Shown piece after piece: positions 18,671 through 63,016 of a DNA stretch of 64,000 nucleotides. The stretch is from Squalus acanthias (taxonomy: Eukaryota): NCBI GenBank assembly GCA_030390025.1, contig CM059431.1, positions 132,248,001-132,312,000 on the forward strand. Reading direction: 5' to 3'. The first letter of the stretch is position 1. Every line of letters starts with the position of its first letter. The notes beneath the pieces were generated by a model, which worked only from the letters and a program-made list of their open reading frames with translations, was not told the DNA's origin and did no database searches. The position numbers were made by a program, and so were the translations under genes.

Positions 18671-20067
18671 CTTTATGCTGTACACCCATATGGCTGCAAC
18701 ATGCTGCTCCAGGTTCACACCACCCCACAGCAACACCATAAAGCATCCCTATAATGACCAAGCCATTCCTTTCACACTGACCACCATTGCTGGAGGTAAC
18801 GTTATGTCCCACCATTCACTCCAACTCACTAAGCCACTTCCAAAGCTGCACACAAATTTGTCCATGCCCGGAAAGTAGTGAAAATAAAGATTTTTATCTG
18901 TGACATCACAGTAACGGAAACTTTACAGAAACATTTAATAAAACACCCAAATGACTACCCTTGTGCATCTACTTGTGTTTCATCTTTCCCTTCTGCATGC
19001 TTCTACGAGGTGCTACCCCTGTGGCTTCAGCAGAGGTAGAGGCAGCCTGCTTACTTCCCTGCTGCGACTGCATAGACACTTTTGGTGGACGTCCTCTGGT
19101 CTTTGGGCCTGTGATGGCCCCGCCAAAGTCTGCTCCTCCTGCGACTGTGCAGGGGCAGACTCAGCCATCGCAATCTGGGGAGCCATTTGGGGCTCTGACA
19201 GGGGGGTGGGGGGCAACAGGGGAGAAGTGTGGGTGCTTTCAGAGGAGCCCCCACTTCCATGTCCCCTCTCACCATCATTCCTCTCATGGGCCATCCGAAC
19301 TTCCCTGCTAGCAAGGAGCAGAAGAGCACCTTGCTGCACAGCAGTGGGGCCATGAGGACCCACGTCTACGTTGACATCCCTCCTAGAGAGGAGGTCTATG
19401 AGCGTCTGACATCTATTCTCCATCGATAGCCATCTATTCTCCATAGATAATATGTGCTCCTGTGAGTGTTGCATTAGCTGCTCCATGCAGGTGGCCATCC
19501 TTTCCATGGAAGAGCCTGCAGTCGCCATTGCCTGTGACATGATGGTGTTCATGTTGGAGATGGACTCCTCCATTCTCTGGACATTTGCAGACATTGCGGT
19601 CGAAAAACCTGTCAAAGCCTCCTGCACTTCTTGCTGCACCTCCAGCATCGCCCTCTTTCTGGATGGCCCCGAGGCTCAGCGTCTGCATGCAGCTGAGCAG
19701 AGCTGGGAGCATCCTGTGCCCTCCAGCGAGGAGTCTCCACTGCTGTCCCTGTCTCCACCATCTGCTCTTGCTCACTTGTGACTTGTGAGATACCAGGTGA
19801 CAACACTACTCTATCTCGCATCGGACCCACCGAGGTGTGCGTATCTGCGCTGGTGCTGGGTGCGCTTATGTCTGGTGACGATGCGCCCTCAGAGGCTGGC
19901 GGCTGCTCTGAGGAGTCAGTTTCCTCTTCCTCCTGGACAGTGGGGACGGGGGCTCTTGATAGACCTGTGGGAGAGTAAAGAGATGAGTTAGATATGTCAT
20001 TTGAAGAATGGGTACAGATACCATTATGCACATAATGAACATTCACTGGCTGCAGACATCAGTTGCC

Positions 20068-22454
20068 ACATAGAAACATAGAAGATAGGAGCAGGAGTAG
20101 GCCATTCGGCCCCTCTAGCCTGGTCCGCCATTCAATGCGATCATGGCTGATCATCCAAATACAGAACCCTGTCCCTGCTTTCTCCCCATATCCCTTGATC
20201 CCTTTAGCCTTAAGAAATATATCCAACTCCTCCTTGAATATATTTAATGAATTGGCCTCTACTGCCTTCTGTGGTAGAGAATTCCACAGGTTCACCACTC
20301 TCTGGGTGAAGAAATTCCTCCTCATTTCTGTCCTAAATGGCTTACCCCTTATCCTTAGACTGTGACCCCTGGTTCTGGACTCCCCGACCATCGGGAACAT
20401 CCTTCCTGCATCTAGTCTGTCCAGTCCTTTCAGAATTTTATAAGTTTCAATGAGATCCCCTCTCATTCTTCTAAACTCCAGCGAGTATAAGCCCAATCGA
20501 CCCAATCTCTCCTCATACGTCATTCCTGCCATCCCAGGTATCAGCCTGGTGAATCTTCGCTGCACTCCTTCCATGGCAAGAACCTCCTTCCTCAGATAAG
20601 GCGACCAAAACTGCACACAATACTCAAGATGTAGTCTCACCAAGGCCCTGTACAACTGTAGCAAGACATCCTTGTTCCTGTACTCAAACCCTTTCGCTAC
20701 GAAGGCCAACATACCATTTGCCTTCTTAACCGCCTGCTGCACCTGCGTGCTTACCTTCAGCGACTGGTGCACAAGGACACCCAGGTCTCATTGCACTTCC
20801 CCTTCTCCCAATCTATTGCCATTCAGATAATAATCTGCCTTCCTGTTTTTGACACCAAAGTGGATAACCTCGCATTTATCCACGTTATATTGCATCTGCC
20901 ATGCTTCTGCACAATCACCCAACCTGTCCAAATCATCCTGGAGTTTCTCGGCATCCTCCTCACAGCACACACACCCACCCAGCTTTGTGTCGTCTGCAAA
21001 CTTGGAGATATTACATCTAGTTCCCTTGTCTAGATCATTAATATATATTGTGAATAGCTGGGGTCCAAGGACCGATCCCTGTGGTACCCCACTAGTCACT
21101 GCCTGCTACTCGGAAAATGACCCATTTATTCCAACTCTTTGCTTTCTGTCTGCCAACCAGTTCTCTATCCAAGTCAATACCTTGCCCCCAATCCCATGTG
21201 CCTTAACTTTACACGCTATCCTCTTATGCGGGACCTTATCGAAAGCCTTTTGAAAGTCCAAATACACCACATCCACTGGTTCTCCCTTATCTATTTTATC
21301 AGTTACATCCTCAAAAAATTCCAGTAGATTAGTCAAACACGATTTACCTTTTGTAAATCCATGTTGACTTTGTCCGATCCTGTCACTGTTTTCCAAGTGC
21401 TCTGCTATTACATCTTTTATAACGGACTCTAGCATTTTCCCCACTACCGATGTCAGGCTTACCGGTCTGTAACTCCCCGTTTTCTCTACCACCCTTTTTG
21501 AATAGTGGGGTAACATTAGCTACCCTCCAATCCATGGGTATTGTTCCAGATTCCATCGAATGTTGGAAGATGATCAGCAATGCATCTACTATTTCTAGGG
21601 CCACTTCCTTAAGTACCCTAGGATGTAGATTATCAGGCCCTGGGGATTTAACGGCCTTCAATCCCTTCAATTTCCCTAACACCATTTCCCTACAAATACT
21701 GATTTCTTTCAGTTCCTCCCTTTCATCAGACCCTATGTTCTCCAACATCTCTGGGAGGTTATTTGTGTCCTCCTTTGTGAAGACAGAACCAAAATATGTA
21801 TTTAATTGGTCTGCCATTTCTTTGTTCCCCATTATAAGTTCCCCTGATTCTGACTGCAAGGGACCTATGCTTGACTTCACCAATCTTTTTCTCTTCACAT
21901 ATCTATAAAAGCTTTTACAGTCAGTTTTTATGTTCCCTGAAAGCTTCCTCTCATATTCTATTTTCCCCTTCTTAATTAATCCCTTTGTCCTCCTTTGTTG
22001 AATCCTAAACTGCTCCCAATCCTCAGGTTTACTGCTTTTTCTGGCCTATTTTCTGCCCTCTCCTTGGATCTTATGCTATCCCTAATTTCCTTGTTAGCCA
22101 TGGTTGAGTCACCTTTTTTGTTTTATTCTTATGCCAAACTGGGATGAACAAATTCTGTAGTTTATGCGGTCTTTGAATGTTTGCCATTGCCTATCCACCG
22201 TCAACCCTTTGAGTGACATTCCCCAATCAGTCCTACCCAACTCGCGCCTCATACCATCGTAGTTTCCTTTATTTAAATTCAGGACCCTAGTCTCTGAGTC
22301 AACTACTTCACTCTCCATCTTAATGAAGAATTCTATCATATTATGATCGCTCCGACCCAAGGGGCCTCGCACAACAAGATTGCAAATTAATCCTTTCTCA
22401 TTACATAATACCCAGTCTAAGATGGCCTGCTCTCTGGTTGGTTCCTCGACATAT
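20068..22454 (-). mobile_element. 5'-truncated CR1 LINE (about 2.4 kb) nested in intron 2 of the Harbinger Myb gene
   Basis: Minus-strand ORFs 22109-22474, 21383-21898, 21106-21516, 20788-21099 and 20059-20772 form a frameshifted EN-RT ORF2 (SDHN, YRPVSLTS, GVPQGSVLGP, FADDTK). (TTTCTATG)n tail at 20068. Confidence 0.95.
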
Positions 22455-22755
22455 GAATGACTGCTGTATGCCATGTAGCTGTATGAGATGTAATTCTGTC
22501 ACCAGGTTGCTGAGATGCTCCCCTCTCCATCTCCCACCTCCAGCTGCTCTGCGACTCCTGACACTTCCAAGGCAACCTCCTTTGCTGCTGGTAAGGTGGC
22601 CAATGATGGAGGGTGACCTCCGGTTCTCTCCCTCTTATTGTGGGCTCTCTTTTCCTGCAAGGAGGGAAAGAAGAGAAGGTTGAGTGAGAGTGATGGAATG
22701 AGTGTAAGGAATGGATGGGTTACATCTTTAGAGGAAGACTATGATGGAGAGGGGT

Positions 22756-27401: not shown

Positions 27402-28323
27402 TAGAATCATAGAATGATACAGCACAGAAGGAGGCCATTCGGTCCATCGTGCCTGTGATGGCTCTTTGAAAGATCTATCCAATCAGTCCCACTCCCCTGC
27501 TCTGTCCCCATCGCCCTGCAAATGTTTCCCCTTCAAGCATTTATCCAATTCCCTTTTGAAAGTTACTATTGAATCGACTTCAACCACCCTTTCAGGCAGT
27601 GCATTTTAGATCATGATAACTTGCTGTGTTACATTTTTTGTACTCATGTCACTTCAGGTTCTTTTGCCAATTAACTTAAATCTGTGTCCTCTGGTTACTG
27701 ACCCTTCAGCCACTGGAAACAGTTTCTTCTTATTTACTCTATCAAAACCCTTCATGATTATGAACACCTCTATCAAATCTCCCCTTAACCTTCTCTGCTG
27801 TAAAGAGAACAGCCCCAGTTTCTCTAGTCTCTCCACATAACTGAAGTCCTTCATCCCTGGTACCGTTCTAGTAAATCTCCTCTGCACCCTCTCTAAGGCC
27901 TTGACATCCCTCCTAAAGTGTGGTGCCCAGAATTGGCCACAATAATCCAGCTGGGGCCTAACCAGTGATTTAAAAAGGTTTAGCATAACTTCCTTGCTTT
28001 TGTACTCTATTCCTTAATTAATAAAGACAAGGATCCAGTATGCTTTTTAAACAGCCTTCTCAACCTGTCCTGCCATCTTCAAAGATTTGTGTACACACCC
28101 CCCCAGGTGTCTCTGTTCCTGCACCCCCTTGAAAATTGTACCATTTAGTTTATATTGTCTCTCCTCATTCTTCCTACCAAAATGAATCATTTCACACTTC
28201 TCTGCGATAAATTTCATCTGCCATGTGTCTGGCAATTTCACCAGTCTGTCTATGTCCTCCTGAAGTCTGTTACTATCCCCTTCACTGTTTACTACATTTC
28301 CGAGTTTTGTATCATCTGCAAAC
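27402..28323 (-). mobile_element. CR1 3' fragment
   Basis: ORFs 27654-27986 and 28047-28241 carry CR1 C-terminal motifs. TAGAATCATAGAA tail. Confidence 0.9.
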
Positions 28324-31961: not shown

Positions 31962-33003
31962 GGCTGGCAGGCTGTAACTAGTGGGGTACCGCAAGGATCA
32001 GTGCTGGGGCCTCAGCTATTCACAATCTATATCAATGACTTAGATGAGGGGACCAAATGCAATGTATCCAAGTTTGCTGATGATACAAAGCTAGGTGGGA
32101 ATGTAAGTTGTGAGGAGAATGCAAGGAGGCTTCAAGGGGATATAGGCAAGCTAAGTCAGTGGGCAAGAACATGGCAAATGAATATAATGTGGAGAAATAT
32201 GAAGTTATCCACTTTGGTAGGAAAAATAGAAAAGCAGAGTATTTTTTAAATGGTGAGAGATTGGGAAATGTTGGTGTTCAGAGGGACCTGGGTATCCTTG
32301 TACACGAATCACTGAAAGTTAACATGTAGGTACAGCAAGCAATTAGGAAAGAAAATGGTATGTTGGCCTTTATTACAAGAGGATTTGAGTATAAGAGTAA
32401 AGACGTCTTAGCGCAATTATATCGGGCCCTGGTGAGACCACACCTGGAATATTGTGTGCAGTTTTGGTCTCCTTATCTAAGGAAGGATATACTTGCCATA
32501 GAGGGAGTGAAACGAAGGTTCACCAGACTGATTCCTGGGATGGGGGGATTGTCCTGTGAGGAGAGATTGAGTAGACTAGGTCTATATTCTCCAGAGTTTA
32601 GAAGAATGAGGGGTGATCTCATTGAAACATATAAAATTCTTACAGCGCTTGACAGGGTAGATGCAGGGAAGATGTTTCCCCCTGGCTGGGTTGTCTAGAA
32701 CCAGGGGTCACAGTCTCAGAATAAGGGGTCGGCCATTTAGGACTGAGATGAGGAGAAATTTCTTCACTCAGAGGGTGGTGAATCTTTGGAATTCTCTACC
32801 CCAGAGGGCTGTGGAAGCTCAGTCGTTGAGTATATTCAGGACAGAGATCGATAGATTTTTGGATATTAAGGGAATCAAGGGATATGGGGATAGTGCAAGA
32901 AAGTGGAGTTGAGGTTGAAGATAAGCCATGATCTTATTGAATGGTGGAGCAGACTTGCGGGGCAGAATGGCCTACTCCTGCTCCTATTTCTTATGTTCTT
33001 ATC
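31962..33003 (+). mobile_element. CR1 3' fragment abutting the previous CR1 in the opposite orientation
   Basis: ORFs 32001-32249, 32360-32698 and 32661-32912 ([30 protein letters not shown]). TTCTTATGTTCTT tail. Confidence 0.92.
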
Positions 33004-41195: not shown

Positions 41196-44100
41196 TATAT
41201 CTATACTGTTGTGAGTTAACGTTTCAAGGAATAAAGGACTTTTTTACCTGTTGGTTATATTTGTTTAATGGCGACATCAAGTAACGAAGGTGTATTTTGC
41301 AAGACAGTCCAATGTTAGTAGATTGCACCAGTGACTGACAGATTGCATTTCAGATTCTAGCACTAGCTGATATTTTTACTCCGGTTTTTCCACAGACAAT
41401 AGGCTGTCAAACGTAACTAAGTTATATAAGAGACAGTATTTGATAGAAAACATCTTGATAACTGTAGAAGGAGAAGTCAACACAGGCTCCACTTTATTTC
41501 TTCCTTCTGGCCAGTTACAGAGCTGACTTTTGTAGGCCATGGAGAAGTTCCCGGTCAGCCACCATCTAGGTTTATGAGGATATAAGTAAGAGGAAATAAC
41601 GATAAAGTGACAATCAGTATGGAACACACTTAATTTATTTACCAGGAGGTCACAGGACCAGTTTTGTCAATTGTCAGACAAGCCACTTGATAGAGAACCA
41701 CATGTGTGTGGCTGTTCAGCTCTGAAGAAGGAAAAGCTGACTTCATTTAGCTTGTTGAATCATAATCAGGGGGCAACCTTGAGAGTTGTCATGGAAAAGG
41801 TCACAGCCTGGACTGTCTGGCGTTTAACCCCCATCTCCTGCCGCCAAGAGGAAGATATGTACTGGAAAACATGCTGGAAATAGGAGTAAATAAAGATAAA
41901 TCAGTCCAAAAAGCTGACAGATAGTTTGAGGTATGGATTATCACAATGTGCTCTTAACAGCTTTGACAGCAATTTTGATTAAGTGGCAGCCATGTCCTTC
42001 AAAGGTCCTACGTGATCATGTCAACATAAGATTAGGCCATTCAGCCCATCAGGTCTGATCCACTATTTTGTTAGCTATGAGAGTCCTTTATCTTTTTAAT
42101 CCCAAATAGCCTGCCTTTCTCCACATCCATTGATAACCTTACTTCCCAAGTGAGTACCTGTCTCCCTTTTGAACGCATCAGTTGATTCCGCATCTGTGTC
42201 CTGGGACAGTGCATCCCACATTCTCATAAGCCTATGTGTGGAGAAAATACAACTGCAAAACTCCTTACTTTATCTCAGAAGCCACCGTTTTGATTGCAGC
42301 AGTATGGGGAGGAAGGATTAGCTTGTGTGAAACATTGTACGTGAGTGGAGTGGGAGAAAACTTTCTAAATTGATTTTATCAGGAATTAGAAATGTACCAC
42401 CTCCACATATTTTATTTGTATTTATATTCCAAAAAGAAAGTAAGTTCAGTAACAGTAATAGTACAGAATCTTACTGCAGTTCTACATCCCACACATGCCT
42501 TCTCCCAGAGTCTGGATCCATTTGTTCTGAATTGTGCTAATCTGGGCACGTGCAGAAAACAAAGTGATGACATCAATTCTTCCAGCAACAAAGCTGATAA
42601 AACAGGGGCTTTAGGGAGTTAATGCTTCCAATTTTCTAGCATAAGCTTCTTCATGTGTTTGGAAATGTACTTTTATCTTGAATGTTAATCCTATTCTTTT
42701 CTCTTGCCTGCATGGAGATTTAAGCAGTTGTTCTCTCGCTCAATAAACTAGCATGTGTCCCTGGGGTTCCACAGGATTAGGGCATTGCATAGATTGTAAC
42801 CAGATTGCATCCTTTACCAGTGTCCTTTTCTCATTAGACAGCTAAGTAAATGTGGATTTTGCTAACCTGTTTTGTTCTGAAGAAAGATAAATTTATAATT
42901 AGTGTTATTTTTCATAATTTCTAATTATTGTTATCTCTTATTTGGGAGGATTTAAGAATGGGTTATGTTTAAGGGTTTTTCTCCAATGGTCTCTGATCGC
43001 CTAATAAAACATGAGTTAGACAACTTTTGAACAGTGTTAATCGGGCCGGCAGTGGGCGAGTCATGCGCTGCGCCTACCCGAAGCAATCAGGACGGGGCCA
43101 ATGCCATTTTCATGGTCGGGCCTCATTTGAATTAAATCGACGAGCTCCCAGTGCAAAATGCATTACCTGTAGGCAACTTGCCAATTGGGAGGGCAATAAA
43201 TCCGGTGGGGCGGCCACTACTTAAAGGCAGCCTGCAGCACCTTAAAGGGGAGGTGCTTTTTTTCATGGTGGATAGTGGATAGCAATATTGTAGGGCAGAA
43301 GGCAGGATGACTTCGACCAGAGTACCCAGATTCTCGGATAGAGTGGTGAAGATGCTCAGTAAGGAAGTGAGAAGCAGGGAGGAGGTCCTCTTCCCTTTGA
43401 CGGGCAATGGGTGCTGAGACAGATTAAGCAGCAGGCAAGAAGGTTGCAGAATCTCTGTCACAAGCATATCCCCAGGCTGCAGTACATGAACAAAGTTTCA
43501 TCATTTGACCAGGAGCACAAGGTAATACTCCTCTTCACATCTCTCCTATTCTCTCTGCAGCCGTGCACAACCCCTACTTTAGCCCCAGTACTATCAATCC
43601 TTCCTTTCCCTGCCTCTGCTCAATCCAGCAGGAAACACTTCACTCCACCTCCTTTCTGCTTGCACTCACACCCTCAAAGCCTCCTACTGCCCTCACAACT
43701 AATTTCCCCTCTTGGCCACACTTGCTGTTTCTTCCTCACATCGTTTACATTATGCTAAGCAGCCTCATATATCTTGAAAACACTTAAACAGAAGGGAGAG
43801 TATGGGAACAAAGGGAGCTCCTGCCACTCTACAGACACTGACATCAGTGGAAGAGGCTGCCTTTGGCATCATTGGCAGAGAGGGCATGCAGAACAGAGAT
43901 GGCCAGACTGGAGGCCATGCATAGTAAGATGTTTGGGCATCTTCCCTTCCTTTACTCTTTCTATTTAATTCTCCCACTTACACAATCACATACTCAGCAT
44001 GACAACCTGGTGCTAAATTGTGCTACCATTCATCTGCTACTGCTTACCATTGTCACTACATGCTAACTCTTGTCCCACTCCCCTTTTTCTAGGTCCATCA

Positions 44101-44882
44101 GATGACCTGGGCATTGCAGTCATTTAAACTGAGGGGGAGATCCCTCCAGAAGATGCACTCAGTCTGAGTCTTCCAAGCACCAGCACAGAAATCAGTACCA
44201 TATGGCACAGAGAGGGGGGTCTGAGCACCAGTGAGCAGGAGCAGGAGCATGTGGAAAGAATGGCCCAGGAAACAACTCACCAGACCACCAGCTCGCATCC
44301 TAGCTCTGCTGAAGAGGACAAAGATACAGGCCAGAATTTTCTGGCGTCCGTGCGGGCGCGATTGAAGGCTGGTTGGAAGGGAAGTTTGAAAAACCTTAGA
44401 GCGGGTTGGGAAGCCGCCGTCATCCCACCATCATCCCACGTGCCTTTCCCTCAGGTGCGTTTGCCAGTGCAGCAGCGACCCAAACGGCAGAGGCGGCCAA
44501 GGTAATTGAGATCATCATGAAGTACTTGTCAGACCCTTAAGCCTCTTTCTCACCCTACCTTTCAAATTTCCCTGGATGAGCACGGGAATTACGCAGCTCA
44601 GGAACCATGTCTGTGAACCTGAGGCGGAAGTTGAGTGGCCATTCACCCACCTCAATAATGCACAGCATGAAAAGTGCAATAAAAACTCCCACCTGACAGC
44701 TGATCACTTTCCTAAGGCACATGCTGTTGCTGATTGCATTGTCAGCACAGATTTAGCTTTCGAGAGGTTGCAAGTGTTTTCAGCAAAGTCGGGATCCAGT
44801 GTCACCTCATTGGTAGAACCTATCACACCATTGACAGCTTGCTTCTGTCATCGCTACTTGACCTGCCATCTATTCCATCAGC

Positions 44883-46098
44883 ATGGGTGCCATTTATACT
44901 ATCTCACCTTGGGCCTCAGAATTGGACCACGATGAGCCCCAATACCAGCAGCACCAGGCACACCAGCAGCACCAACAACACCACCAACATTCTCCTCAAC
45001 CACCTGATGCTCCACAGGACAGAGGGCATCAGCGCAGGGCTGCACCACGCCGGAGGCGATACCCCCAACACAGGGTATACAAGCAGAGGATGAGCTTCAA
45101 CAACATGACGGAGCAGTAGTGCCAAAGGAGGCTCAGGCTATTGCGCCAGGTCATCTCAGACATTTGCAGATTGCTGGAGCAAGACCTGCAGCCCAGAGGA
45201 GCGGGTGGACACGCCTTACCACTGGCTGTCAAAGTCAGCAGCACTCTCAACTTCTTTGCCTCAGGCTCCTTCCAGGGATCTGCAGCAGACATTTGCGGCA
45301 TCTCGCAGTCGGCCACCCACAGATACATTGCACAGGTCACCGATGCCCTGTTTGACAAGTCAGTCAATTATATCAACTTTGCCACTGATGAAGCCAGTGT
45401 TACTGAGCGGTTGCTCAGCTTTGCCACTCTGGCTGGCTTCCCATGGGTGCAGGGCATCATCAACTGCACACATGTGGCCATCAGGGCACCCCATCATCAC
45501 TCTGGAGTCTTTGAGGGAGTGGAAGCCCTTGCAATTCACAATGTGCAGCTCATCTGCAACCATAGTAAGATCATCATGCACGTGTGCGCCAAATTTCCTG
45601 GCAGCTGTCATGACTCTTTCATCCTGCGCCAGTCCACCCTCCCTCAGCTCTTCGCTCCTCCAAACAGACTTTCCAGCTGGCTGCTTGGAGACAAGGGCTA
45701 TCCACTGAAGACATGGCTCATGACACCCTTGAGGGGGCCAAGTACTGAGGCTGAGGAGAGATATAATGAAAGTCACACTTCCACCAGATGTGTCATAGAG
45801 CAGACAATAGGCATGCTGAAAATGTGTTTCAGATGCCTTGACAGATCTGGAGGAGCCCTCCAGTATGAATCAGCCAGGGTCTCCAGAATCATCATGGTCT
45901 GCTGCGCCCTGCACAACATAGCGCAGCAGCAAGGATCAGCGCTACATGAAGAGCAAGGCTCATCAGATGAGGAGTAGGAGGAGGAGCAGGAGCAGGAGGA
46001 GCATCAGCTGGAAGATGAGGAGGAGCAGGGGGAACCTGCGGTCCAGATCCCACATTGTTGCCCGGGAGGCCAGGGGTGACCTCATCATGGCCAGATTT
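44883..46098 (+). pseudogene. Harbinger transposase of copy B
   Basis: ORFs 44883-45119 and 45141-45977 are in the same frame, separated by one stop. The first catalytic Asp is changed (INCTH); GDKGY and VIEQT are retained. Confidence 0.92.
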
Positions 46099-46186
46099 TA
46101 TGCATTACACCCATATGGATGCCACAAGCTGCGCCAGGTTGGCACCACCCCATAGCAACACCATAAAGAACCCCTACAATGACCAA

Positions 46187-46892
46187 AATGAGAAGTCGCA
46201 CAACACCAGGTTATAGTCCAACAGATTTATTTAATTTTACAAGCTTTCGGAACAGTTCGCTCCTTCGTCAGGTAAGTTAGCAGTGAGAGAATCTCCCAGA
46301 ATTCACAATTTAAACACAGACAAAATATATTCAAATCTTTCCCTACATCAAAGAGCATAGCCAAGGCAATGAGATGTGTCCCAGGCATTCAGCCTCGGAT
46401 ATGCGGGTAAGCGTTCTCCAAGGCGGCCTTCGAGATACACAACAGCGCAAAATCATAGAGCAGAAACTGATAGCCAAGTTCCGCACTCATGAGGATGGCC
46501 TCAATCGCGATATCGGGTTCATGTCACGATACAGGACGTGACTTGACATCATGGCCGGTCTTCCCAGGTGTTTTTTTTTAAAAAGACTAACACAAGAACC
46601 TACACAGATTGACAGGATATGCAGCCAGCAGGTGGTTTGACACGTTGGACCCCCTGGGACACATCTCATTGTCTTGGCTATGCTCTTTGATGTAGGGAAA
46701 GATTTGAATATATTTTGTCTGTGTTTAAATTGTGAATTCTGGGAGATTCTCTCACTGCTAACTTACCTGACGAAGGAGCGAACTGTTCCGAAAGCTTGTA
46801 AAATTAAATAAATCTGTTGGACTATAACCTGGTGTTGTGCGACTTCTCATTTTTGTCCACCCCAGTCCAACGCCGGCATCTCCACATCATGA
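46187..46892 (+). mobile_element. Penelope-like retroelement insertion: inverted pLTR + GIY-YIG C-terminus + pLTR + tail
   Basis: 46386-46541 encodes HSASDMRVSVLQGGLRDTQQRKIIEQKLIAKFRTHEDGLNRDIGFMSRYRT*, the R...E..I...T...GLN end of PLE GIY-YIG endonucleases. 201-bp inverted arms at 46185-46385 and 46653-46853. Direct repeat CCTACAATGACCAA at 46173-46186 and 46893-46906. Copy A is uninterrupted at this site. Confidence 0.88.
46761..46835 (+). ncRNA. Hammerhead-ribozyme-like motif in the PLE terminal repeat (mirror copy on the minus strand at about 46203-46277)
   Basis: CTGACGA (46767-46773), then stem II GGAGC/GAACT/GTTCC, then GAAA (46790-46793) overlapping the palindrome AAGCTT. Minimal hammerheads are a known feature of PLE pLTRs. 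Stems I and III are not confidently assigned. Confidence 0.55.
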
Positions 46893-49800
46893 CCTACAAT
46901 GACCAAGCCATTCCTTTCACACTGACCACCATTGCTGAAGGTAACGTTATGTCGCACCATTCACTCCAACTCACTAAGCCACTTCCAAAGATGCACACAA
47001 ATTTGTCCAGTGGTGAAAATAAAGATTTTTATCTGTGACATCACAGTAATGGAAACTTTACAGAAACATTTAATAAAACACCCAAGTGGCTACCCTTGTG
47101 CATCTACTTGTGTTTCATCTTTCTCTTCCGCGTGCTTCTATGAGGTGCTACCCCTGTGGCTTCAGCAGAGGTAGAGGCAGCCTGCTCACTTCCCTGCTGT
47201 GACTGCATAGACACCTTTGGCAGACGTCCTCTGAGTTTTGGAGCCTGTGATGGCCCCGCCAGAGTCTGCTCCTCCTGCAATGTGCAGGGGCAGACTCGGC
47301 CATCTTGATCCGAGGAGCCATCTGGGGCTCTGACTGGGGGGAGGGAGCGTTTTGAGATGAGCCCCCACTTCCTCCTGTGAGTCCTGTGAGGCTGGGAGAC
47401 CAATTGTACAGATCCTTCAATTAGATCATGGATATCCTACACTCTCCTGTGTACCAGGGGCAGTCATGCAATGGGGATGTAACATGAAGCCATCTCTTAG
47501 GATGATAGCACGTCTGCACCCTTGCCATCCCTGAACCAATGCCTGCCCTGGTGCCAGAATGTCAGCAGATATTAAGCTGCTGTAGTCTGAAGCCAGGCCT
47601 GCTCAGGTCAGCGGCCACACGCATCCCAAGAAAAGTTGACTGAGTCACAGTAGCCTGCCACCTCTCACGCTGCAGCCATTAGGAGAGCACCTCATAGGAG
47701 CACTACAGTAGGTAAGGTAGCACTTAAGGGAAGTACTAGAGGCTCGCACAAGGGCAAGAATTACTGTGTAGGCATTTGTATAAGGCTGTAAAATTATAAT
47801 ACTTTCTGAAATCTTTGTATGGAGAGAGTTGTTCCTGTAATAGCTGATGACCCTGCAATGTTAGTTGACGTGAATATCAGTGTGGGTCTTTAGGCATATG
47901 CAGCTTTCGAGGGCAGAAGGACTCAAATAGACTTTGGACATAACTGTTGATGTAGGGGAGCAGGGGTTGTTTAGCTGCAGCACTCTTCAGTGAGCTGCTG
48001 CTGAAGAACTCTGACTGCAGGCAATTGTTGGACCCCTCCCACTTTCTTACCATCCTCTATATCATCAGTGTTGTCTCCCTCATCAAACTGAAGATCCTTG
48101 CCCAATGGTGGCTCCATGTGTTGTACTCATTGCAGAACAAAGTTATGCAGCATAAAGCAAATCACTATCATGCGGGACACTCTTTGTGGGCTGTATTGCA
48201 GTTTACCACCAGTCCTCCCCAAGCATCAGAATTATTGCTTGAGGACTCCAATCACTTGACAAAGGATCTAGTTAACATGGATGTGATTATAGTGCAATCC
48301 AGCTGCAAAGCATGGGTTCCTGATTGGAGTCATGAGCCAAGTGTGCAGGGCGTAGCACTTATCTCCAAGCTGCCAGCCTCTCACTTGCTCTGCTGTTTCA
48401 AAGAGTGGGGGGGATGGAGGATTGCCCATGGCAACTGTCAGGAAAGTGGGCACAGACCTACATGATACATTGCTGGTGATCACACACCAGTTGCCCATTA
48501 ATGGAGTGGAGGTTCTTGGGAGCAGACAATGATACCCTGGACTTGGAGGAATGCTTGCTGGCGAAGAGAACTATCATTGCCTAATGTGAGCAATTGCTTG
48601 TCAAGTACACAAGCACAAAGGATGGTACAGTCATCACATCTCTGTTTCATTCTAACTATGTATTGAGGCCTGTGAATGTGAAAAGCTTAGATGGATCAGA
48701 CATCAAATTACACAACACTGTTAACAGCTGAACTGTTAACTTGAGATTAGCTCATGGAATAGCTTGGTGAATTTTGCTTTTTCCAATTTGGAAGTCATGA
48801 GTACAGAAAGTTATAAACTGGTGTATGCTTAAACTTGGAGGAATCCTGCAATCTGTGCGAACCCTAAACTCATATCATGTTGTTTTCGGCATTTGGCAAA
48901 TTCCTGAATGGGGAAGGAGTTAGAGGTCCCACCCTTCCACTTCCTGTAAATACTCAGAGAATATAGACAAAGAGACTCATAGGAGGTCACTCAGGTTCAT
49001 CGGAATCCTGCCCGAACCCGGCCAGGTGTAATACCTGGCCGGTGGGCAAGAGCATAAGAGTACAGGCAGGAGCCCACAGCCTGGGACCCACAGCATCAGT
49101 CCTCAGCAGTCAGGTAAGTGGTTGGGGGGGCAAGGGGGAAAAGACAATTGGGGGGGCGAAACCCAGGGTAAGGAAGGCCCCAGGCTTCCTAGTGAGGCCT
49201 GGAGGAGCAATGCTCCTGTTGGCCCAAAAGGAAACCTAAAAATAAATGTTAAAACTTACCTCCTGGGCCGCTTGTGGCCCACAATCCACCACTTGAGAGG
49301 TTTGGCCTGACGGGGAAGCTGTCACCGCTTCTCCCGCTCAGGCCTTGGACTAAAATTGCAGTTCGAGTCCCGATGACATCATTGGGAGCCAATCTGCAGA
49401 GTTAAAACAGGACCCGCTGCCTTCCTGCGGGTGTCCTGCTCACCTGCTCAAAAGAGCAGATTAGTATTCGGACCCGATGGCAAGGCCGCAGGATTGGCGG
49501 GGGTAAGTTGTTCCCCTCATTTTAACTGCCTCCTTGCCCGGTTTCCACCAGACAGAGGGAGTTAAAATTGGGGTCTGTGAGTTATAGGCCCAGGCCTAGA
49601 GTAGAGGCTAAAATGCAGGAGATTAGTGTTTGCAGTCAGGCATTTGGAATGGGACAAATTTGGCATTTTCAACAGTCAAGCGGCAGAATGATTCACAATG
49701 AGTCCAAATAAGACTTGAATTTATTTGAGGACTATTTATTCTTATAAGAAAGCTATTGAAAATAGAATGGATCTGAAGTTCACCAAAGACTATAGACATT

Positions 49801-52800
49801 TTATAGGGTCGTGAGAGAGCAGCAACAGCTAAGATTGTCTTACACCACTCCTACTTTTGTTCCTGCTGCTGTTCCTAATCAAGGCCTACACATTTTCATG
49901 TAGGTGGAGACACATAAGCAGTTAATTGGACCCAAGCAAATGTGGGTTTCTAATGCTTTTAAGTTCATGGAAGATCACACACCTATCATCAATGGGACTT
50001 TATCAACATAAAAGTGCTTTAACATTGCTGTCAGAGTTACTGACAAATATGCAGCTGGGACACCCAATCCCCTTGATTCTTTTGTCTATTTTGATTTCTA
50101 GATATCCTCCTTTCTCATCTCCTCAAGCGCTCGCCTTCAAATAGCTTCTTTCACCAAGGGGAATGCAGGACCCAGCTGTTTCACTATCTCTGCTGGCAGT
50201 GATAGTCTGCCGCCAGATGCCAACACATTGCAGGGCATGAAGCACGATGTAAAGTCACCCTGCTGGAGATAAGATGCTGTGCCACTGTCATGTTTCTCAC
50301 CTAATTGGCTGGAGAATATCAGTTAAACAGCAGAATTTAATTATTCTTTGCTATTTGAAGAAATAAGTAGCCCATTGTAAAAATGTCTTTTCAGGAATAG
50401 TTAGTAGCTTCTCCCATTAGTAGGCTGCTGTAATGAAGGTGTATGACTCAATCAAACAATATTTTAAAGGATCTCCAACTCCATTATGGAAGGGGGTTCA
50501 GTATTTGTCAATATTTTGAAAACAGTATTTTCTCATGATGCAAATGGTGGTATAACGTCACTCCTATACTTATACCAGTAACAAGGTACTGTTCTCATTG
50601 GGGCTGATCTGATGTCCCTTAGTAATATTATTAATTTTAATCCTGGCACATTCAGAAATTTGCCTTTTCCTAGTCACACTATAACATGATGGCATGGAAA
50701 ACCTGTACCACTGTTAATGAGCACAACAAATTTAGCATGCTGCAAAATAGTGATACCATTGGTAATCACAGGACTATCGCTGTTCAGTGAAAGTGTACCA
50801 AGAACATAATGTAGCTTTCAGACCAGACAACCAAGGAGGACTGCTGATAGCTTAGAGTTATCACTGCTGTGCGTATCATCACTGGGAAGTGCTAGTTAAT
50901 ATTGAAAAATAAAGTTTGGAATAAAAGAATTGTAAACCTAAGAATACTAAGTAAATATATTTTAGTGCTAGCATTTTTTCATTCTCACAGTAGTACATAA
51001 TTAAATATGATTAAATCATTGAAATTACTAAATGGAAAATAGAAAAAGGCTCTGTGGATTATTTATATATTATTTATATATCGTCCATTCTTTTATTATA
51101 TCCTTACACTGTAATAATGGTTTGGGTAACTTCTGTTGGATTAAAAAAATTAATTCTTTTTACTTTTTCAGCAGCAGAGTTAGAACGTGTAATGAAATAT
51201 TGTCTTGCTGAATCATTCATTTGCTGAAATACCAAATAATTTGACATTCTTAGCCCTTTGTTCATGTGCTGCTGTAGTCATTTGTTTGTTGATGTGGAAA
51301 CGTACTAATTGGCCGAGGTGGACAGATGCGGTAATGGAGTGGTAGTATGGTTTCCGCATTGCAGGGCATGAACAAACTGTTCACAGTGGCACGTCTCTGT
51401 GTCAAATGGATTAGCATAGTCTGATTTTGACATTTCTATCCATACATTTGTCTTCGAACTGTTGTTTTTATGTACTACAGATCTCGGGGTAGGTTTGGAG
51501 GATATTTATGTGATAGCATTTGGGTAAAATTAGCCTTGTAATGTCAGCATTTGAAAATATCTCGTATAGAAAGATAAATGGATAATATCTACAGTGGAAT
51601 TTATTTATTGTATTTGCTGGATATTTACTCCTATTATAGTAAGAGAGAAGAAATGAATACAGCAAAGGCTAACACTGCTAGTTCTTGCTGTGTGCAGTCT
51701 TTATAGCTTGAGTGCAGAGGAACAGCTGGTCAGGATTGAGTGGTGCTGCCCCCTCGTGACTATATGGTTAAACTATTTTGTCAATGCAACTGAAAAGGAA
51801 GTGTGAATATCAATGTACAGAGCAGTGACTTGTACAGTTAAAGTCACAGAGGTCTCCTTAGGCACTAAGTTATATAGATTTTATTTTATAGAGGAGCAGG
51901 GTTTTATAAAGATTTATTGAAGTGTCTCCTTAGAGAGATAAATTACTGTAGCTATTGAAGCAAACTAGAAAAAGAATTACACCAGAAGGAAAAATGTGAA
52001 GGTATCATTCATTTACACTGTAGACAAGCTGTAGCATCTGCTGTATACGAGATGTCAAGCCAGATTGCATCAAGGGAAATCTTTGTTTTCTGTTTTGTGC
52101 CACTGTGAATAGAATTAAGCAGATTTCTACATTAGTATTGCACAGAATTGATGTTTTAGATGGAGACTCCAATGGTTCAGCAGTACAATTTACGCAATTA
52201 TCAAAGTATTTTAATGTAAAATAGATTTTTAAATTATGTATTGTTTGTTTTGATTAACTTGCATAAAGTCCATTTCAATGTTTTATTCTGAATAGCAAAC
52301 AGTCCATTTCCTACATGCAGCTCATGTGTGTCACATTCAGCTGTGTCTAAAGTTTAGTTTCCATGGCAGCTGTCACATTGTTCTCGCATGTGACCCAATG
52401 AGCCCCATGACACACAAGGTATCAACAGTTCATGGATGAAAGCATTTCTGGAAGGGTCAAGCTCTTGACATAGGATGATTCAATCCTTGAGGTTTCTGAT
52501 GACTTTATCTTCAGCGAGCTGAATAAATTGACCTTCTGAGAGAACTTGGTAGCAGACTATATGGATTTTGGCAAAACTTGGATGCAAATCTGAGTCTCTT
52601 ATCACTATATCATTTTAAGGAGGAGATATATTTTCATCTGTAGCACTCCCTGCAGAAATCCATCCTTTTAAAGAATTGAAAATTGTGGGGGGGGGGTTGG
52701 GGGGGTCTGCAAGTTGGGCAATGACCAAATTCCTGCCAAGTGTTGCCAGCGCTGGAAACCCTGCATGATGAGCACTAAAAATATGTTAAAGATTCAGCCA

Positions 52801-54085: not shown

Positions 54086-56303
54086 TGTAGCTGGAGTTGA
54101 TGTGAAAATAGTTCATTGCTAAAATTATTTTTTAATAAAGGAAATGTTAATTTATTCATATTAACTCACTGTGACAAGGTTTTAACTAAACAATTATCAC
54201 TATCTAGTGGTTTGGATTAAGACACTTACATCATCATGTAGAGCTCTTGGGTCTGCTAGACAGTTGAATGATTACGTTGTATGTATGAAATACTCTCACA
54301 TGCTTCAGTATTGTTTTTCTGCTTCAGTTCACCCATTGAACAAGCAAACAGTGGGTTCATTATTATGGGCAAAAGGATTAGCCATCCACCCAGTCCATTC
54401 TGATTTAGAAATGAAATTACACAGTGTATATAGACTCAGCACTTCATCAGTGGTGAGACTAGGCATACTAGTCCGTCAAATGGTATATGTAGGCCCCACC
54501 TGGGGTCCAGGCCCAGGGCGCAGCCTAGATCTCCAAAGATCTCAAAACATTTTCAGTGTTATTTCAGCACTCTTTCAAAGAGCAGCATATATTTCAGGGC
54601 TAATGTGGACTGAATTTCTCGTTCTTCTGGGAAAGGTGGGTATTCCAGATGCACCCCTATTCATGTAGGTGCTCGCCATTGCCGTTGTTAATGAAAGGAC
54701 CTCCCGTTGACCCCACACATTTTGTCAGGGTCAGCAGCAGAGGTACCGGCAGGGGAATCTGACACACATGCTGGTATGTGCCCCCCGACCCATGGATTTT
54801 CTGCCCTTTTGGCCTCCAAGGGCTCCCTGTGGGACAGCAGTTGGTCCCCTCTTTGCACCTTTCATGACACTGTAGCCGAGTTACATAACCCACTTCTTGG
54901 GGAAGCAAAGGGCGCAGTCTGTCTGTCATTCCACAGCATGCACTGTTAAAGTACAAATACACAGCACCACTGTACTACCTCTAGTTTACCAGTTTGAAAC
55001 CAGGTAGGTCTGCTATTTAATTCAGTGTTAGGGGCAGCTTTAAAACGTTGCTAATTTGAATCCTGTTATTAAATGGAGTTTATCTCATTTTTTCCTGAAG
55101 GTAATCCCACTGATGAGATTAAAACGTGGAAGCAGGGAAAAGTGAGGCAGCCTGTGGAATAGAAAAATGCTTTGTATTAAACTGAGCTGAACCCAACGAA
55201 CAGGGTTGGAACTAAACTGCCAAAATTTACTGTTTTGTTATTGGAAGGCAAAGTGAAAAGTTGTCTGAGCTCTTAAGTCTCTGCTGCAGTGCTGGGGAAT
55301 TGTTGTCATTTAAAAAATCCAAGCCTCAAGCAAGCAACACTTGGTATTAGGCCGATCCTGTCAAACCAAGTACATTTAAATTCACTCAACCTTTGTAGCT
55401 GGATTTGTACTTAGTCTGACATATAGAATTATACTGGGCTAGATGTTCCACTCATTGACAATGAATTGATAGAATAATGTATTTCTTATAAATTGTTGCA
55501 TTTTGGAATAATTTATTGTAAATAATTATTTTTAGGAATGCCATTTAATTGAACATAATGGCCTAAGTTTTCCGATTGTAGTGTTGATGGTAACCTATTT
55601 AAATGGGCTACCATTGGTTTTACGATTGTTAAATGTATGCCACTGTTAATATTCTACTCTGTAAGGTCTTAATAGCTTACAGATACATATAAAATTGGTA
55701 CGGGAGGTCAAAGAGTGATCTGTGGACTTACCCATGATTGGTTCAGCATACCCCAATAAAATGTATGACCTCTGGATTTTATTTTCCTATAAGTAAATGA
55801 TGTAGTGGATGTACTAACAATTCATTTACAAGAGGTTATTGGGAATAACCTTGGAGTGCTCGGTAATGTTGATCGCTGTTGAATCTTATCAGATCTTGTG
55901 TTTAGAAGAGAAATATAGCTGAGCAGTTGTAGTGCATAACTCTTAAAATTTAACGTTTTGAACTGTGCAAAGACAATTTTGAAACTTCCATCTGCAAAAG
56001 CATAGCACCCGGCTTGTGTGCAAAATTCACTGAGGCACAGCAGAATGAGATGGGTCGGTGGGGAGGGAATAAAGCATTGGTCTTATGAAAATGTTAGTTC
56101 ATTTTATGCTATCAATTCAGAGACATTGAAGAGAATGTGGAGCTGGTGTTTGGGTTTTGAGTGAGAGCTAGCCTTTTCCTAACATTAGAAACACAGTTGC
56201 AACAGTTACCAGTCTTTCTTCCTATTGGTGGAAAGTAGTTGGATGAGCTTCATGGCAGGGATGTGGACCAGAGATTCTGCTTGTGCACTCGCGAGCCCAT
56301 ACT

Positions 56304-58769: not shown

Positions 58770-59614
58770 GTTATCTATGTTACATTCAAGCAGACTATGT
58801 TACTGTTCTTTCCAAAAAATGGAATATCTTTAAATCGAATTATGTTTGATATATGTAATTCTGCACCCCAAGGATTTCAGGTTTTAAGTTTTTATGCAGT
58901 TATATAATCAGTTGAAGAGATAAAATTAACTTCAAAGTTGCGTTTGTCATCATCAACAGCGCTTATTCAAGCCATTGCTGTGAGAATGCATCTTTAGATC
59001 TGTTTACCACTGAGAAATTGCTGAACTTCAGCACACTGGATTGTCGTCAAAGCTGACAGTTGAACCAATACTACGGCCGCGATTTTGCCAGTGCTCAGAG
59101 GGCGGATTTGGAGGCGGGTCAGGTGTTAAATTCAAAATGATTGACGGCGGGTTGGGAACCCGCTGCGAACCCGCCTCCACGCCAGTTTCGAAAGTGTCAG
59201 GTCTGCGCCTTCAGACCAGACCTGACACCAAGTGACTGGAGAGGCACTTAAGATAGTTAACAGTTTTTTAACTCCTTGTTAATTGCTATTTTGCCAGGCT
59301 TATTCCATTTTCACACATTTTCAACGTGTTTCACGTCGTTCGGCAAACACGCCAGCTGAGTGTGTCGGGTCTTCCAACGAGCTGAATAGTTCACAGCTGC
59401 AACTGCTGCATAAAACCTAACCTATCACATCAGGTCACTTTCAAATGCCCGAAGTTGCTGAATTCATGATTTGGAGGACACCTTTGAGCTGTATTGAAGT
59501 TGTAAGTGTGTGCTGTGAACTCTATACGCACTGTCACCTCCTCGGAATAAGCTCTCTCCCCACTGACTTACTCCTGATAACATCTCATCCTCAATTGCCA
59601 TATATAACAGCAGA

Positions 59615-60848
59615 ATGGGAACCATTTCTACTCTCTCATCCTGGTCCTCATATTCAGAAGAGGATCATCCATGGCAGCAGCAGAGCCAGGCACAGCAGCA
59701 GCACCAATAACAAGAGCGCCAACCTTCTCCTCAGCCGTCGGATGCTGCACAGGGCGAAGGCCATCAGCGCTGGGCTGGCCCGCGCCGCAGGAGATACCCC
59801 CAACACAGGGTTTACAGGCCGAGGATGAGCTGCCTCAACATGAGTGAGCAGCACTGCCAAAGGAGGCTGAGACTTTCGCGAGAGGTAGTCGTAGACATTT
59901 GCACAATGCTGGACCAAGACTTGCAGCCCAGAGGAGCGGGTGGACACGCCTTACCAATGGCTGTCAAAGTCACCACTGCACTCAACTTCTTTGCGTCAGG
60001 GTCCTTCCAGGGATCAGCAGCAGACATTAGCGGCATCTCCCAGTCGGTCGCCCACAGATGCATCACGCAGGTTACCGATGCCCTCTTTGCAAAGTCCATC
60101 AATTACATCCACTTTTCAACTGATGAAGCCAGTGTTACTGCATGGGCGCTAGACTTTGTCAATCTGGCTGTCTTCCCACGGGTGCAAGGCGTCATCGACT
60201 GCACCCATCTGGCCACCTGGGCACCCCATCACAACCCAGCAGTATTTGTGAACCGCAAGGGCTTCCACTCCCTTAATGTGCAGCTGGTCTGCAACCAAAG
60301 GAAGAGCATCATGCATGTGTGCGCAGAGTACAGCTGCCATGACTCTTATATCCTGCGCCAGTCCACTGTGCCTCAGCTCTTCACACTGCCAACGACCTTT
60401 CCGAATGGCTCCTTGGAGACAAGGGCTATCTCCTGAAGACGTGGCTAATGACGCCGATGAGGAGGCCATCAAACGAGTCTGAGGAGCGCAACAATCAAAG
60501 CCACATTTCCACCAGAAGTGTAATAGATAACACAATAGGGTTGCTCAAAATGCACTTCAGATTCCTGGACAGATCTGGTGGAGCCTACAGTACGCACCAG
60601 CCAGTGTCTCGCGAATCATCGTGGTCTGCTGTGCCCTGTACAACATCGCACTGCAACGGGGATTAGCGCTGCCTGCGGAACAGGTGGCAGAGCGCACAGC
60701 CTCTTCAGAGGAGGAGGAGGAGGAAGAGCCGAATGAGGCTGCAGATGAGGAACTCCTGGAGGAGGCGGCTGACCCAGTGCGACCAGCACGCGAGCACATT
60801 GCTGCCCGTCAGGCAAGGGATGGCCTAATCCATGGCAGATTCAACTAA
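59615..60848 (+). pseudogene. Harbinger transposase of copy C
   Basis: ATG at 59615 is in frame with ORF 59825-60436 (one stop between them). Motifs [39 protein letters not shown]. Frameshifts in the 3' half. Confidence 0.92.
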
Positions 60849-61134
60849 CTTTAGGCATCACAGACATGTGGCTGCCACATGCACATGACAGTTCGCATGA
60901 CCCCACTTCTACATCATAGAGCAGCCCTACAATGAACTGTGTATTCCTAGCTCTTTCACCACCATTGCTTCAGATGAAAGGTGCCCTCACCACTTCCTGT
61001 GCCACTTCCAATTGTGAACACACATAGGGCAACGCATTGAAACATTCACAAGACATTACTTTAATACAATAAAATAAAAGAACACAAACATTACACTGAT
61101 TTATATGAAAGCACCCAAGTGACTACCCTTGTGA

Positions 61135-63016
61135 CTATTTATGCGTTAGCTTTCTCTTATGTGTGCTTCTGCGTGGTGCTCCCCCTGTGGCTTCAGCAGA
61201 TGCAGAGGCAGCCTGCTCACTTCCCTGCTGCACCTGCTTAGACGCCTTTGGTGGTCATTCTCTGGGTCTTGGAGCTTGAGAGGGCCCCGCCAAAGTCTGC
61301 TTTTCCTGGGGCTGTGCAGGGGCAGACTCAGCCATCTCTGTTGGGGGAGGCATCTGGGGCTCTGACCGAGGGGTTGGCAATGGGGTGGTAGTGTGAGTGC
61401 TTGGAGAGGAGCCCCACTTCCATTTCCCCTTCCACCACCATCCCTCTCATGGGCCACCCGCACTTCTCTGCTAGCAAATTTCTGGAGAGCACCTTGCTGC
61501 ACATCAGTGGGGCCATGAGGACCCGTGTCTGTGCTGACATTCCTCATAACAAGGATGCCCATGAACCTCTGGTTTCTGTCCTCGATAGATGCCCATCGAT
61601 CCTCCATAGCTGACCATTGATTTAGAAGTGTTACCATGTTCTCCTGAGTCTGGCGATTTATGTCCTCCATGGAGGTTGCCATCCTTTCCATGGCAGGACC
61701 TACATTTGCCAGTGCCTGCACCATGATGCTGCTCATATTTGAGATGGACTCCTCCATTCTCTGCATACTCGCAGTCACCGTGGTTGCTTACCCAGTCAGA
61801 GCCTCCTGCACTTGTTTCTGAAGCACCAGCATCACTTTCTCTATGGATGGCCCCAGAGGCTCAGCGTCTACATGCAGTTGAGCAGAGCTGGGAGTGTCCT
61901 GCAGCTTCTGATGAGGATGCTCCACTGCTGTCCCTGTCTCCACCATCTGCTTTTGCCCACTAGTGAGTTGTGAGACAGACACCAGGTGACAACACTACTC
62001 TATCTCACGTTGGACCCACAGAGGTGTGCATCTCTGCGCTGGTGCAGGGTGCGCTAATTTCTGCTGACATTGCTCCCTCAGAGGCTGGACAGTAAGGAGG
62101 GGGGGCTCTTGATGGTCCTGTGGGAGAGTAAAGACATGAGTTAGACATGTAATAGGTAGGTTGCAGACACATCCCATTGTGCACATAATTAGCACTCAAT
62201 TTCGAGGAACATCAGATCCTATATGAGTCACTCCTGAATGCCAAATCAGATGTTTGGAAAATAATTCTGTCACCAGGTTGTTCGACTGAGCCCGTCTCTC
62301 CGTCCCCCACTTCAAGCTCCTCAGCACCTCCAACAATGTCTAGAGCTGCCTCCTCAGCATGGGTGAGCTGTGCCACCGATGGTGTTCCTCCTCCTGTTCT
62401 CTCCCTCTCCCTCTTACTGTGGGATCTCTTTTCCTGCACGGTGAGACAGAAGTGCAGTTTTAGTGAACCTGATGGAATGAGTGTAAAGAATGGATAGGAT
62501 AGATGCTCGAGGCAGACTGTGATGGAGTGAGGTGCCAATACCAATTTCCTTCCTTGTGAGTTGTTAGTTGTTGTCATTGTATAACATTGAGAGTTAGTGT
62601 GAGGGGTGCATAGAAAGATGGGGATGTGATTCTGTACATAGGGAGAGAGGGATGGGTGACAGTGCAAGGGATGTTGGGGTGAGTTAGGATGTGCAGGAAT
62701 AGGGTTGGAAATGCTGAGTAATGGGGATGTGAAGACAGGCACAGTAGAATGAAGGTAAGTTTGCTGTTATACTCATTTTTGCTGAACGCAGGAGATCATT
62801 GAACCTCTTTCTACACTGGACCCAGGTGCATGTACAGATAGACCTCACACTCACCTCCTCAGCTATTTGCAGCCAGGCTGCCTTGGTGTGCTGAGGAGGC
62901 TTCCTCCTTCCATCAGAAGGGAACAGTACCTCCTTACGCCCTCTTACTCCCTCCACAAGAACATGGAGGGAGTCATAGTCGAAACGGGGAGCAGCCTTTG
63001 TTCTAGGTGCAGTCAT
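61135..63016 (-). pseudogene. Myb/SANT-like gene of copy C; exons 63016-62777, 62433-62274, 62117-61135
   Basis: Exon 1 (240 bp, same length as in copy A) reads MTAPRTKAAPRFDYDSLHVLVEGV...AWLQIAEEVS...TWVQCRKRFNDL. The donor is mutated to ATGAGT. Exon 2 reads EKRSHSKRERERTGGG. Exon 3 is frameshifted and ends in a basic tail (RRSTHKRKLTHK*). Confidence 0.87.

Follow-up and report, generated by a model that had tools for sequence, protein, structure and literature searches.

A recent Penelope-like insertion carrying a dimer-type minimal hammerhead in both orientations within a glypican intron of Squalus acanthias

The minimal hammerhead ribozymes of Penelope-like elements (PLEs) share an extra nucleotide, a G10.1-C11.1 pair and a palindromic 15.2-16.2 segment as conserved traits, and are also found as opposite-strand pairs 100–700 bp apart (Cervera and De la Pena 2014, PMC4209133). 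Reviews describe PLE hammerheads as working as dimers in tandem transcripts; in PMC4209133, a single minimal motif is reported as inactive and dimers as having low activity. In Poseidon of Anolis carolinensis, whose pLTR hammerhead lies upstream of a tail that internal starts of reverse transcription delimit, the core needed the protein of the element to cleave (Frangieh et al. 2024, PMC11167929). The same study reports that PLEs with a mutated hammerhead still inserted unimpaired in vitro, and that no RNA-seq ends were seen at the cut site in Anolis. PLE insertions typically show an outward-facing arrangement with an inverted arm, in which a 5'-truncated body adjoins an inverted 5'-truncated copy, a tail of 30–40 bp (PMC8557442) stands at one end, and a short target duplication surrounds the whole unit (Craig et al. 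2021, PMC8557442; Arkhipova et al. 2013, PMC3846280).

Here we analyze a hammerhead-like motif from S. acanthias, located in a 64,000-nucleotide stretch of DNA (G000:C7:132248001-132312000; hereafter the window, whose numbering is used unless another is given). The insertion that carries it has the same body, inverted copy, one-end tail and enclosing target duplication as the PLE insertions above, from which it differs in that only the last 51 codons of the open reading frame (ORF) remain. The motif agrees with the minimal hammerheads of PMC4209133 in its 4-bp helix I, unpaired nucleotide separating position 9 from 10.1, G10.1-C11.1 pair, palindromic 15.2-16.2 segment without a loop 3, and location in the pLTR, as well as in its mass spread as truncated copies and in the presence of dual motifs on opposite strands, here 526 bp apart. 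In contrast, helix II has 5 bp, compared to 7–8 bp in the Schistosoma families, and sharks are not named in the available portion of that paper. The position of the hammerhead in the pLTR upstream of the tail is shared with Poseidon, which nevertheless belongs to another clade, the shark family having the CX2-5CxxC linker that marks Neptune and Nematis. Canonical type I hammerheads, such as those of satellites and non-LTR retrozymes, have the same CUGANGA and GAAA boxes, topology and dimer-type stem III, whereas the present locus has no tandem array, no 6-bp helix I and no recognizable loop-loop contact. A non-LTR retrozyme was considered and rejected, since there is a single sense core, which lies on the end of a PLE ORF, and no direct repeat in 44000-49500. 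In the literature searched, which comprised main texts outside subscription journals, we found no paper dealing with PLE hammerheads in sharks or with masking by an inverted arm.

Genomic setting and anatomy of the insertion

Two exons of a glypican gene were identified on the + strand of the window, at 4823-4966 (Pfam Glypican positions 282-329) and 8369-8536 (positions 328-384), and the next exon on the same strand begins 455 bases beyond the window end. Because these exons flank the insertion, it is intronic and its right arm is sense to the gene, as the initial annotation had it. The intron is the sixth, is opened by the exon at 8369-8536 and measures 56 kb, with the nearest exons approximately 17.6 and 37.6 kb from the insertion. 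The annotation also named the gene GPC6. That the host is a glypican is certain, whereas GPC6 is only a likely name, based on the gene span of about 1.0 Mb (approximately 131.30–132.32 Mb), the intron sizes and the position downstream of a GPC3/5-type gene; the choice of GPC6 over GPC4 presumes the layout of the human glypicans. Comparison of the glypican with the PDB matched only GPC2 and Dally-like, with no GPC6 name, and an Atlas search likewise gave no match naming GPC6. We use the name below on these terms.

The same intron holds three related PIF/Harbinger-type elements (44000-48500, 17000-19800 and 59400-63000), with a transposase and a convergent second ORF; the paralogous copies in the window are 75–91% identical. 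One of them received the PLE, at a site flanked by the 3' ends of its two genes; its transposase frame lies at 45120-45977 on the + strand (Pfam DDE_Tnp_4, E 5e-34). Segments at 884-2091, 20059-22500, 27654-28013 and 32330-32698 are what we take to be CR1/L2-type LINE fragments.

The insertion is bounded by a target-site duplication of 12–14 bp, with the same 14 nt at 46173-46186 and 46893-46906; the final AA of the left copy could also belong to the arm. The paralogous Harbinger near 18748 has the target site once. The left arm (46187-46385, minus strand) is an inverted, tail-less copy of the 3' end of the element and is antisense in the glypican pre-mRNA. It ends at an inversion junction, which comparison with sibling copies places at 46381-46385, where CCAGG provides microhomology to the sense template; CCAGGGG stands ahead of the sense body in longer copies and is likewise read in the antisense arm. 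The sense body then begins with the PLE ORF's final 51 codons and its stop (46386-46541), from the C-terminal end of the GIY-YIG endonuclease region, and continues with the 3' UTR or pLTR (46542-46857), delimited from the arms and siblings, and a tail of about 35 bp (46858-46892). The tail occurs at the sense end only and is absent from the inverted arm, and read contigs pass into unrelated sequence at 46890. The two arms form an inverted repeat of 205 nt, 46181-46385 against 46653-46857, which is 99% complementary with two differences, the copies being 267 nt apart. Sibling arms likewise end at about 46850-46859 in window coordinates.

The copy in the window is 5'-truncated and carries no RT. 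The translation of 46386-46541 matches the end of an open frame of at least 666 aa in a sibling (L035), which has a Pfam RVT_1 match (E 1.4e-8). No full-length PLE ORF was present among the 14 longer sibling loci examined. Siblings carry a C-x4-C-x2-C linker, found in the sibling protein P0001 when the CX2-5CxxC mark shared by Neptune and Nematis was sought, and a C-terminal VYL...YIG motif identified by eye; Pfam GIY-YIG gave no match at E 0.001 in the sibling ORF, and the PLE protein had no meaningful match in the PDB (three hits, E 0.85–0.89). By its sequence features and the definitions in PMC8557442, the element classifies as an endonuclease-bearing PLE of the Neptune/Nematis type, and its clade is likely Neptune. 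The sense body is 98.6–99.2% identical to four siblings, and the 40 siblings scored of 621 candidates are all 100% identical over 193 bp, which marks the insertion, on sequence comparison, as a very young, 5'-truncated copy.

Of 30 sibling loci, 19, the GPC6 locus included, have an inverted arm over the core; these loci were chosen regardless of genes, and the figure is a lower bound, as the flanking sequence of 20 of them extended just 1.5 kb. A count by eye of the first 100 exact matches listed gave 23 outward-facing pairs (46 matches), and none of the pairs within 10 kb faced inward.

Several other arrangements were seen around the family. At five of the 30 sibling loci (L001, L012, L015, L022 and L026), young copies lie within 1.5 kb of older subfamily copies, which suggests insertion near earlier PLEs. 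In introns of the GPC5-like gene and of GPC6, a large number of the insertions are tiny fold-backs with their inversion point in the hammerhead or just ahead of it, so that stem I or the core is broken on both arms (for example G000:C7:130064918-130065014, 130092355-130092444, 130260462-130260517 and 131566533-131566615); they are consistent with the palindromic PLE junctions described in PMC3846280. Two inverted pairs 64 kb apart, L073 and L074 (G000:C1:6981500-6986000 and 7045500-7050000), both have a spacing of 2,116 bp and represent either a segmental duplication or an assembly duplicate. Tandem arrays with periods of 69 bp and about 62 bp adjoin some PLE copies (L035:4494-7651, L040:3252-3962 and L072). 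L072 has repetitive open frames between its two PLE copies, which are 6.9 kb apart; it was rejected as a direct tandem, there being no PLE ORF between them.

The hammerhead core and its family

The initial annotation read a hammerhead-like core with an inverted duplicate at about 46203-46277, and both the letters and the 205-nt arms bear this out, that interval being the exact mirror of 46761-46835. The sense core (46763-46801, + strand) consists of CUGACGA at 46767-46773, an extra A at 46774, GGAGC at 46775-46779, a GAACU loop at 46780-46784, GUUCC at 46785-46789 and GAAA at 46790-46793, the last overlapping the palindrome AAGCUU at 46792-46797. Stem I pairs UUAC (46763-46766) with GUAA (46798-46801), and stem II pairs 46775-46779 with 46785-46789 in five pairs that include G10.1-C11.1 (G46775-C46789), with A46774 unpaired between positions 9 and 10.1. 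Stem III is the self-complementary AGCU at 46793-46796 (A15.1-G-C-U16.1), which by its pairing geometry could form only between two copies. The NUH site, called unclear in the annotation, is legible: it reads CUU, with H17 at U46797 followed by the GUAA that closes stem I, and the predicted cut therefore falls between 46797 and 46798. Both catalytic boxes, U16.1 and an H17 other than G are present. The mirror core (46237-46275, minus strand; boxes 46242-46271) is a ribozyme only in a minus-strand transcript.

Fold prediction for an isolated 58-mer returns the hammerhead, with pair probabilities of 0.76–0.96 for stem I and 0.996 for stem II (0.76–1.0 across helices I and II), at an unremarkable folding energy (z -1.28). 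A loose pattern of the boxes alone matched four times in the window, compared to an average of 1.07 matches in shuffled sequence, which is weak by itself; the other loose matches, 52490-52514 and 55110-55143, were dropped after failing the structure scan. That structure-aware scan found 18 cores in 1.024 Mb and none in each of three shuffles. The Rfam search suggested in the annotation did not succeed: at E 10 no hammerhead was returned for 44000-49500 (six unrelated sub-threshold matches) or for 46730-46900 (one unrelated match), and since no Rfam hammerhead model matched, Infernal with Rfam is unable to confirm the motif class. In every feature that can be examined in the sequence, the motif is nonetheless a complete type I minimal hammerhead of the PLE kind, and the ORF end, pLTR, tail, target duplication and siblings uphold its assignment to a PLE pLTR. 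A further predicted hairpin, in which GUUGGAC closes with GUCCAAC, spans the arm end and tail at 46815-46872; by analogy with the Anolis element (PMC11167929), it may be a start structure for reverse transcription.

The exact 39-nt core matches the genome 552 times, compared to none for a reversed control, and a looser pattern requiring the extra A matches 77,595 times, compared to five for its reversed control, which amounts to about 21 cores per Mb in the 3.71-Gb assembly. A similar pattern with G directly after CUGANGA gave 115 matches, the two patterns differing slightly in their fixed flanking letters, and many of the 115 are A-to-G changes at the extra-A position. The extra A, which the annotation had suspected of making the motif non-canonical or inactive, is thus the norm of the family and not a defect, and corresponds to the published PLE trait. 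For comparison, PMC4209133 gives about 4,000 cores for coelacanth and 9,000 for Xenopus, obtained by different methods from the one pattern behind our 77,595. A dimer-type, palindromic stem III, also proposed in the annotation, is borne out by the genome counts, with palindromic AGCU at 77,595 and ACGU at 864 against 91 for the non-palindromic ACCU, which is one change away from either.

U occupies position 17 in 66,757 of the 77,595 cores, or 86%, a figure obtained by subtraction. Among the first 100 non-U17 cores listed, 95 have C and three have G, and A is rare too; G17 occurs in one of 56 distinct cores. U17 lengthens the palindrome to six bases (AAGCUU or AACGUU). The cores with ACGU constitute a second hammerhead family (864 genome matches; L241-L254) with stem II GGGUC/GACCC and a different stem I. 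It shares the extra A, has U17 in 13 of 14 sampled copies, and some of its copies have inverted arms. The family could not be linked to a PLE ORF: only one of these 14 loci gave a match, and a main-family core lies at that locus as well.

Covariation extends to all three stems in a set of 56 distinct cores, through few independent events. These are all the distinct cores found by the catalytic boxes in the collected loci, with none dropped, so that copies in which an inversion junction disrupts stem I are among them; the boxes were thus the search criterion, whereas the stems and position 17 were not, and the second family was chosen by its stem II and III letters. Paired cells make up 95.5%, compared to 77.0% in shuffled alignments, and the covariation score is 0.502 compared to 0.184, with none of 500 shuffles equaling either value; slid registers pair only 24–45%. 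Helix I is paired in 88.8% and helix II in 98.9%, and two-sided changes affect all four pairs of stem I, two of the five pairs of stem II and, in stem III, the central pair. Two of the five covariation measures, which count pairs or types, are no better than shuffles (482/500 and 261/500), and most two-sided changes stem from a single split between two families (42 vs 14 rows). The stem II covariation on which the annotation had staked its reading is accordingly present across families and weak within the family of the window, where stem II varies on one side only, by G-U wobbles, and only stem I pair 3 changes two-sidedly (C-G in 18, U-A in 17).

Masking by the inverted arm

The whole insertion is predicted to fold as one 205-bp stem (-448 kcal/mol, z -48.8), in which the pair probability of stems I and II is 0.00, compared to 0.50–0.91 without the left arm. 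The predicted duplex over the core has -100.8 kcal/mol, compared to -8.3 for its own fold. In these models the upstream arm masks the core fully, in agreement with the pairing proposed in the initial annotation. Because outward-facing arms put the antisense copy first, such masking would hold for either direction of transcription, and it is likely a by-product of PLE geometry and not an adaptation to the glypican gene.

The annotation further suggested that masking may explain why the insertion is tolerated. We took a census of 1.66 Mb of glypican introns, comprising the whole 1.024-Mb gene that includes the window, 566 kb of the GPC5-like gene and 70 kb of a third glypican. All three genes are on the + strand, and copies were found by an anchor just 3' of the ribozyme, independently of fold. 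The 47 anchor hits include 21 intact cores, 11 sense and 10 antisense, and no arm lies within 8 kb for 3 of the 11 sense and 3 of the 10 antisense cores (Fisher p = 1.0); for two of the three arm-less sense cores there is no arm within 30 kb either. In GPC6 only, an arm accompanies 8 of 9 sense and 5 of 7 antisense intact cores, which leans toward masking-based tolerance without being significant, as do the arm-less copies when broken ones are included, with 3 in sense and 6 in antisense (p = 0.51). GPC6 has a single arm-less sense core, with a 3-bp stem I, a poor predicted fold (stem I 0.15 with 12-nt flanks) and a related antisense copy 27.8 kb downstream. With wide flanks, stem I is predicted to be lost in each of the three arm-less sense cores (at most 0.04) and mostly in the antisense ones too (0.02, 0.21 and 0.01), so that the loss looks family-wide; wide-flank fold probability was rejected as a measure of activity, as it swings with window size (0.96, 0.94, 0.07 and 0.77 for stem I of the core at 46763-46801). 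The census rules out an absolute requirement for an arm only if the arm-less sense cores are competent, and it is small enough for weak selection to be possible. With no sign of an effect in this small sample, and with arms at 19 of 30 siblings, masking does not appear to be what explains the tolerated insertion.

Cleavage and competing explanations

We consider it very probable that the locus is a recent, 5'-truncated PLE with a standard dimer-type hammerhead in sense and inverted orientation, carried as an inert passenger in the glypican pre-mRNA. Direct observations cover the anatomy, the target duplication, the near-identity to siblings, the abundance of the family and the covariation of its three stems. 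The element would have integrated by endonuclease nicking and reverse transcription and been truncated, and the inverted arm was probably gained in the same event through a template switch guided by microhomology. The hammerhead itself is most likely maintained because it serves the transposon: a tandem pair of copies would associate via AGCU, build stem III and cut after CUU, probably aided by the protein of the element. Such assistance is demonstrated for Poseidon in Anolis (PMC11167929) and is here assumed, by analogy, for the shark family.

At the GPC6 locus, the hammerhead would not cut, because there is no partner core in the intron and the earlier-transcribed 205-bp arm is predicted to out-compete its fold. 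No second sense core was found in the 56-kb intron by loose pattern and structure scan; elsewhere in the gene, the closest sense core lies 333 kb upstream. There being no upstream direct pLTR, the copy has no tandem partner and likely no promoter. The suggestion of the annotation that the right-arm core could cleave the pre-mRNA is therefore unlikely to hold even for an unmasked core, lone cores being inactive in the literature. A better candidate for a dimer in cis lies in intron 1 of the same gene (G000:C7:131374500-131379600, L168-L169), where two direct sense cores are 4.84 kb apart with one antisense copy between them, along with a 442-aa PLE ORF remnant, though arms lie near both cores. 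Of the public sequencing runs, 16 were listed, all as contigs, and two were recorded as RNA, with small shares. Four runs compared with 46390-47100 gave no spanning contig and no clusters of starts or ends, the depth being family-wide and contigs being unable to show ends.

Host selection offers a different account, namely that unmasked sense hammerheads in introns are selected against and sense insertions survive mainly when an arm masks them. The complete masking predicted here, the arms at 8 of 9 intact sense cores in GPC6 and the 3:6 ratio of arm-less copies of any state point in this direction, as do the reported depletion of tandem retrozymes from Xenopus introns, irrespective of orientation (10.64898/2026.07.22.740005), and a secondary citation in PMC2995048 that a fast intronic ribozyme can abort splicing. 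Against this, intact cores are as frequent in sense as in antisense (11 vs 10), their arm-less shares are nearly equal (3/11 vs 3/10, p = 1.0), and arms are found at 19 of 30 sibling loci chosen regardless of genes. Monomers are reported to be inactive and dimers slow (PMC4209133), and a hammerhead that cuts slowly within an intron is reported not to prevent splicing (Dye 2006 and Fong 2009, via PMC2995048). Moreover, a copy as young as the one in GPC6 reveals little about selection by being present. We regard this account as improbable.

Still less credible is the view that the motif is a degraded or non-functional hammerhead, on account of its extra A and U17, that cuts nowhere and is carried by descent. 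The silence of Rfam at E 10 would fit it, as would the prevalence of U17 in 86% of cores, given that non-GUC triplets cut less well and that U17 is among the slowest residues at the cleavage position. The unimpaired in vitro insertion by mutants and the lack of RNA-seq ends at the Anolis cut site (PMC11167929) fit as well. However, the catalytic boxes, albeit the search criterion, are common to subfamilies that differ from one another in N7 as well as in loop II and the stems; G17, a residue that prevents cleavage, is uncommon (one core among the 56 distinct ones and 3 of the first 100 non-U cores listed); the extra nucleotide is a published conserved trait (PMC4209133); and the Anolis core does cut in the presence of its protein (PMC11167929). 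Equally hard to credit is that the relevant product is the 205-bp hairpin, as a substrate for editing or small RNAs that silences the family or alters glypican splicing. A near-perfect stem is indeed predicted, at the energy given above, and PLE small RNAs are reported in a rotifer. Yet no A>G change was listed in the right arm (46653-46857) in four runs, which consist of family-wide contigs of uncertain RNA status, the nearest exons are some 17.6 and 37.6 kb away, and such hairpins number in the thousands, so that no role specific to this locus is implied. The preferred reading thus remains that of a young PLE copy with an ordinary dimer-type hammerhead that would lie inert in the pre-mRNA.

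The locus itself matters little, being one of 552 identical and about 77,000 similar cores, and head-to-head arrangements were already described in 2013–2014 (PMC3846280, PMC4209133). Instead, the scale, at about 21 cores per Mb, and the U17 bias are the unusual aspects. At this density, most large genes would transcribe several hammerheads. The family offers very young copies in great number, in either orientation, some with an arm and some lacking one, so that the in vivo role of the ribozyme and any cost to the host become testable by an orientation count on an annotated assembly. If selection did favor masked over unmasked sense intronic copies, which we think improbable, the family would have a genome-wide ribozyme safety catch; its brakes could be the antisense-first arms and a U17 palindrome that holds dimers in a non-cutting state until the protein of the element refolds them. 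Such a catch, if real, would shape which Penelope insertions survive.
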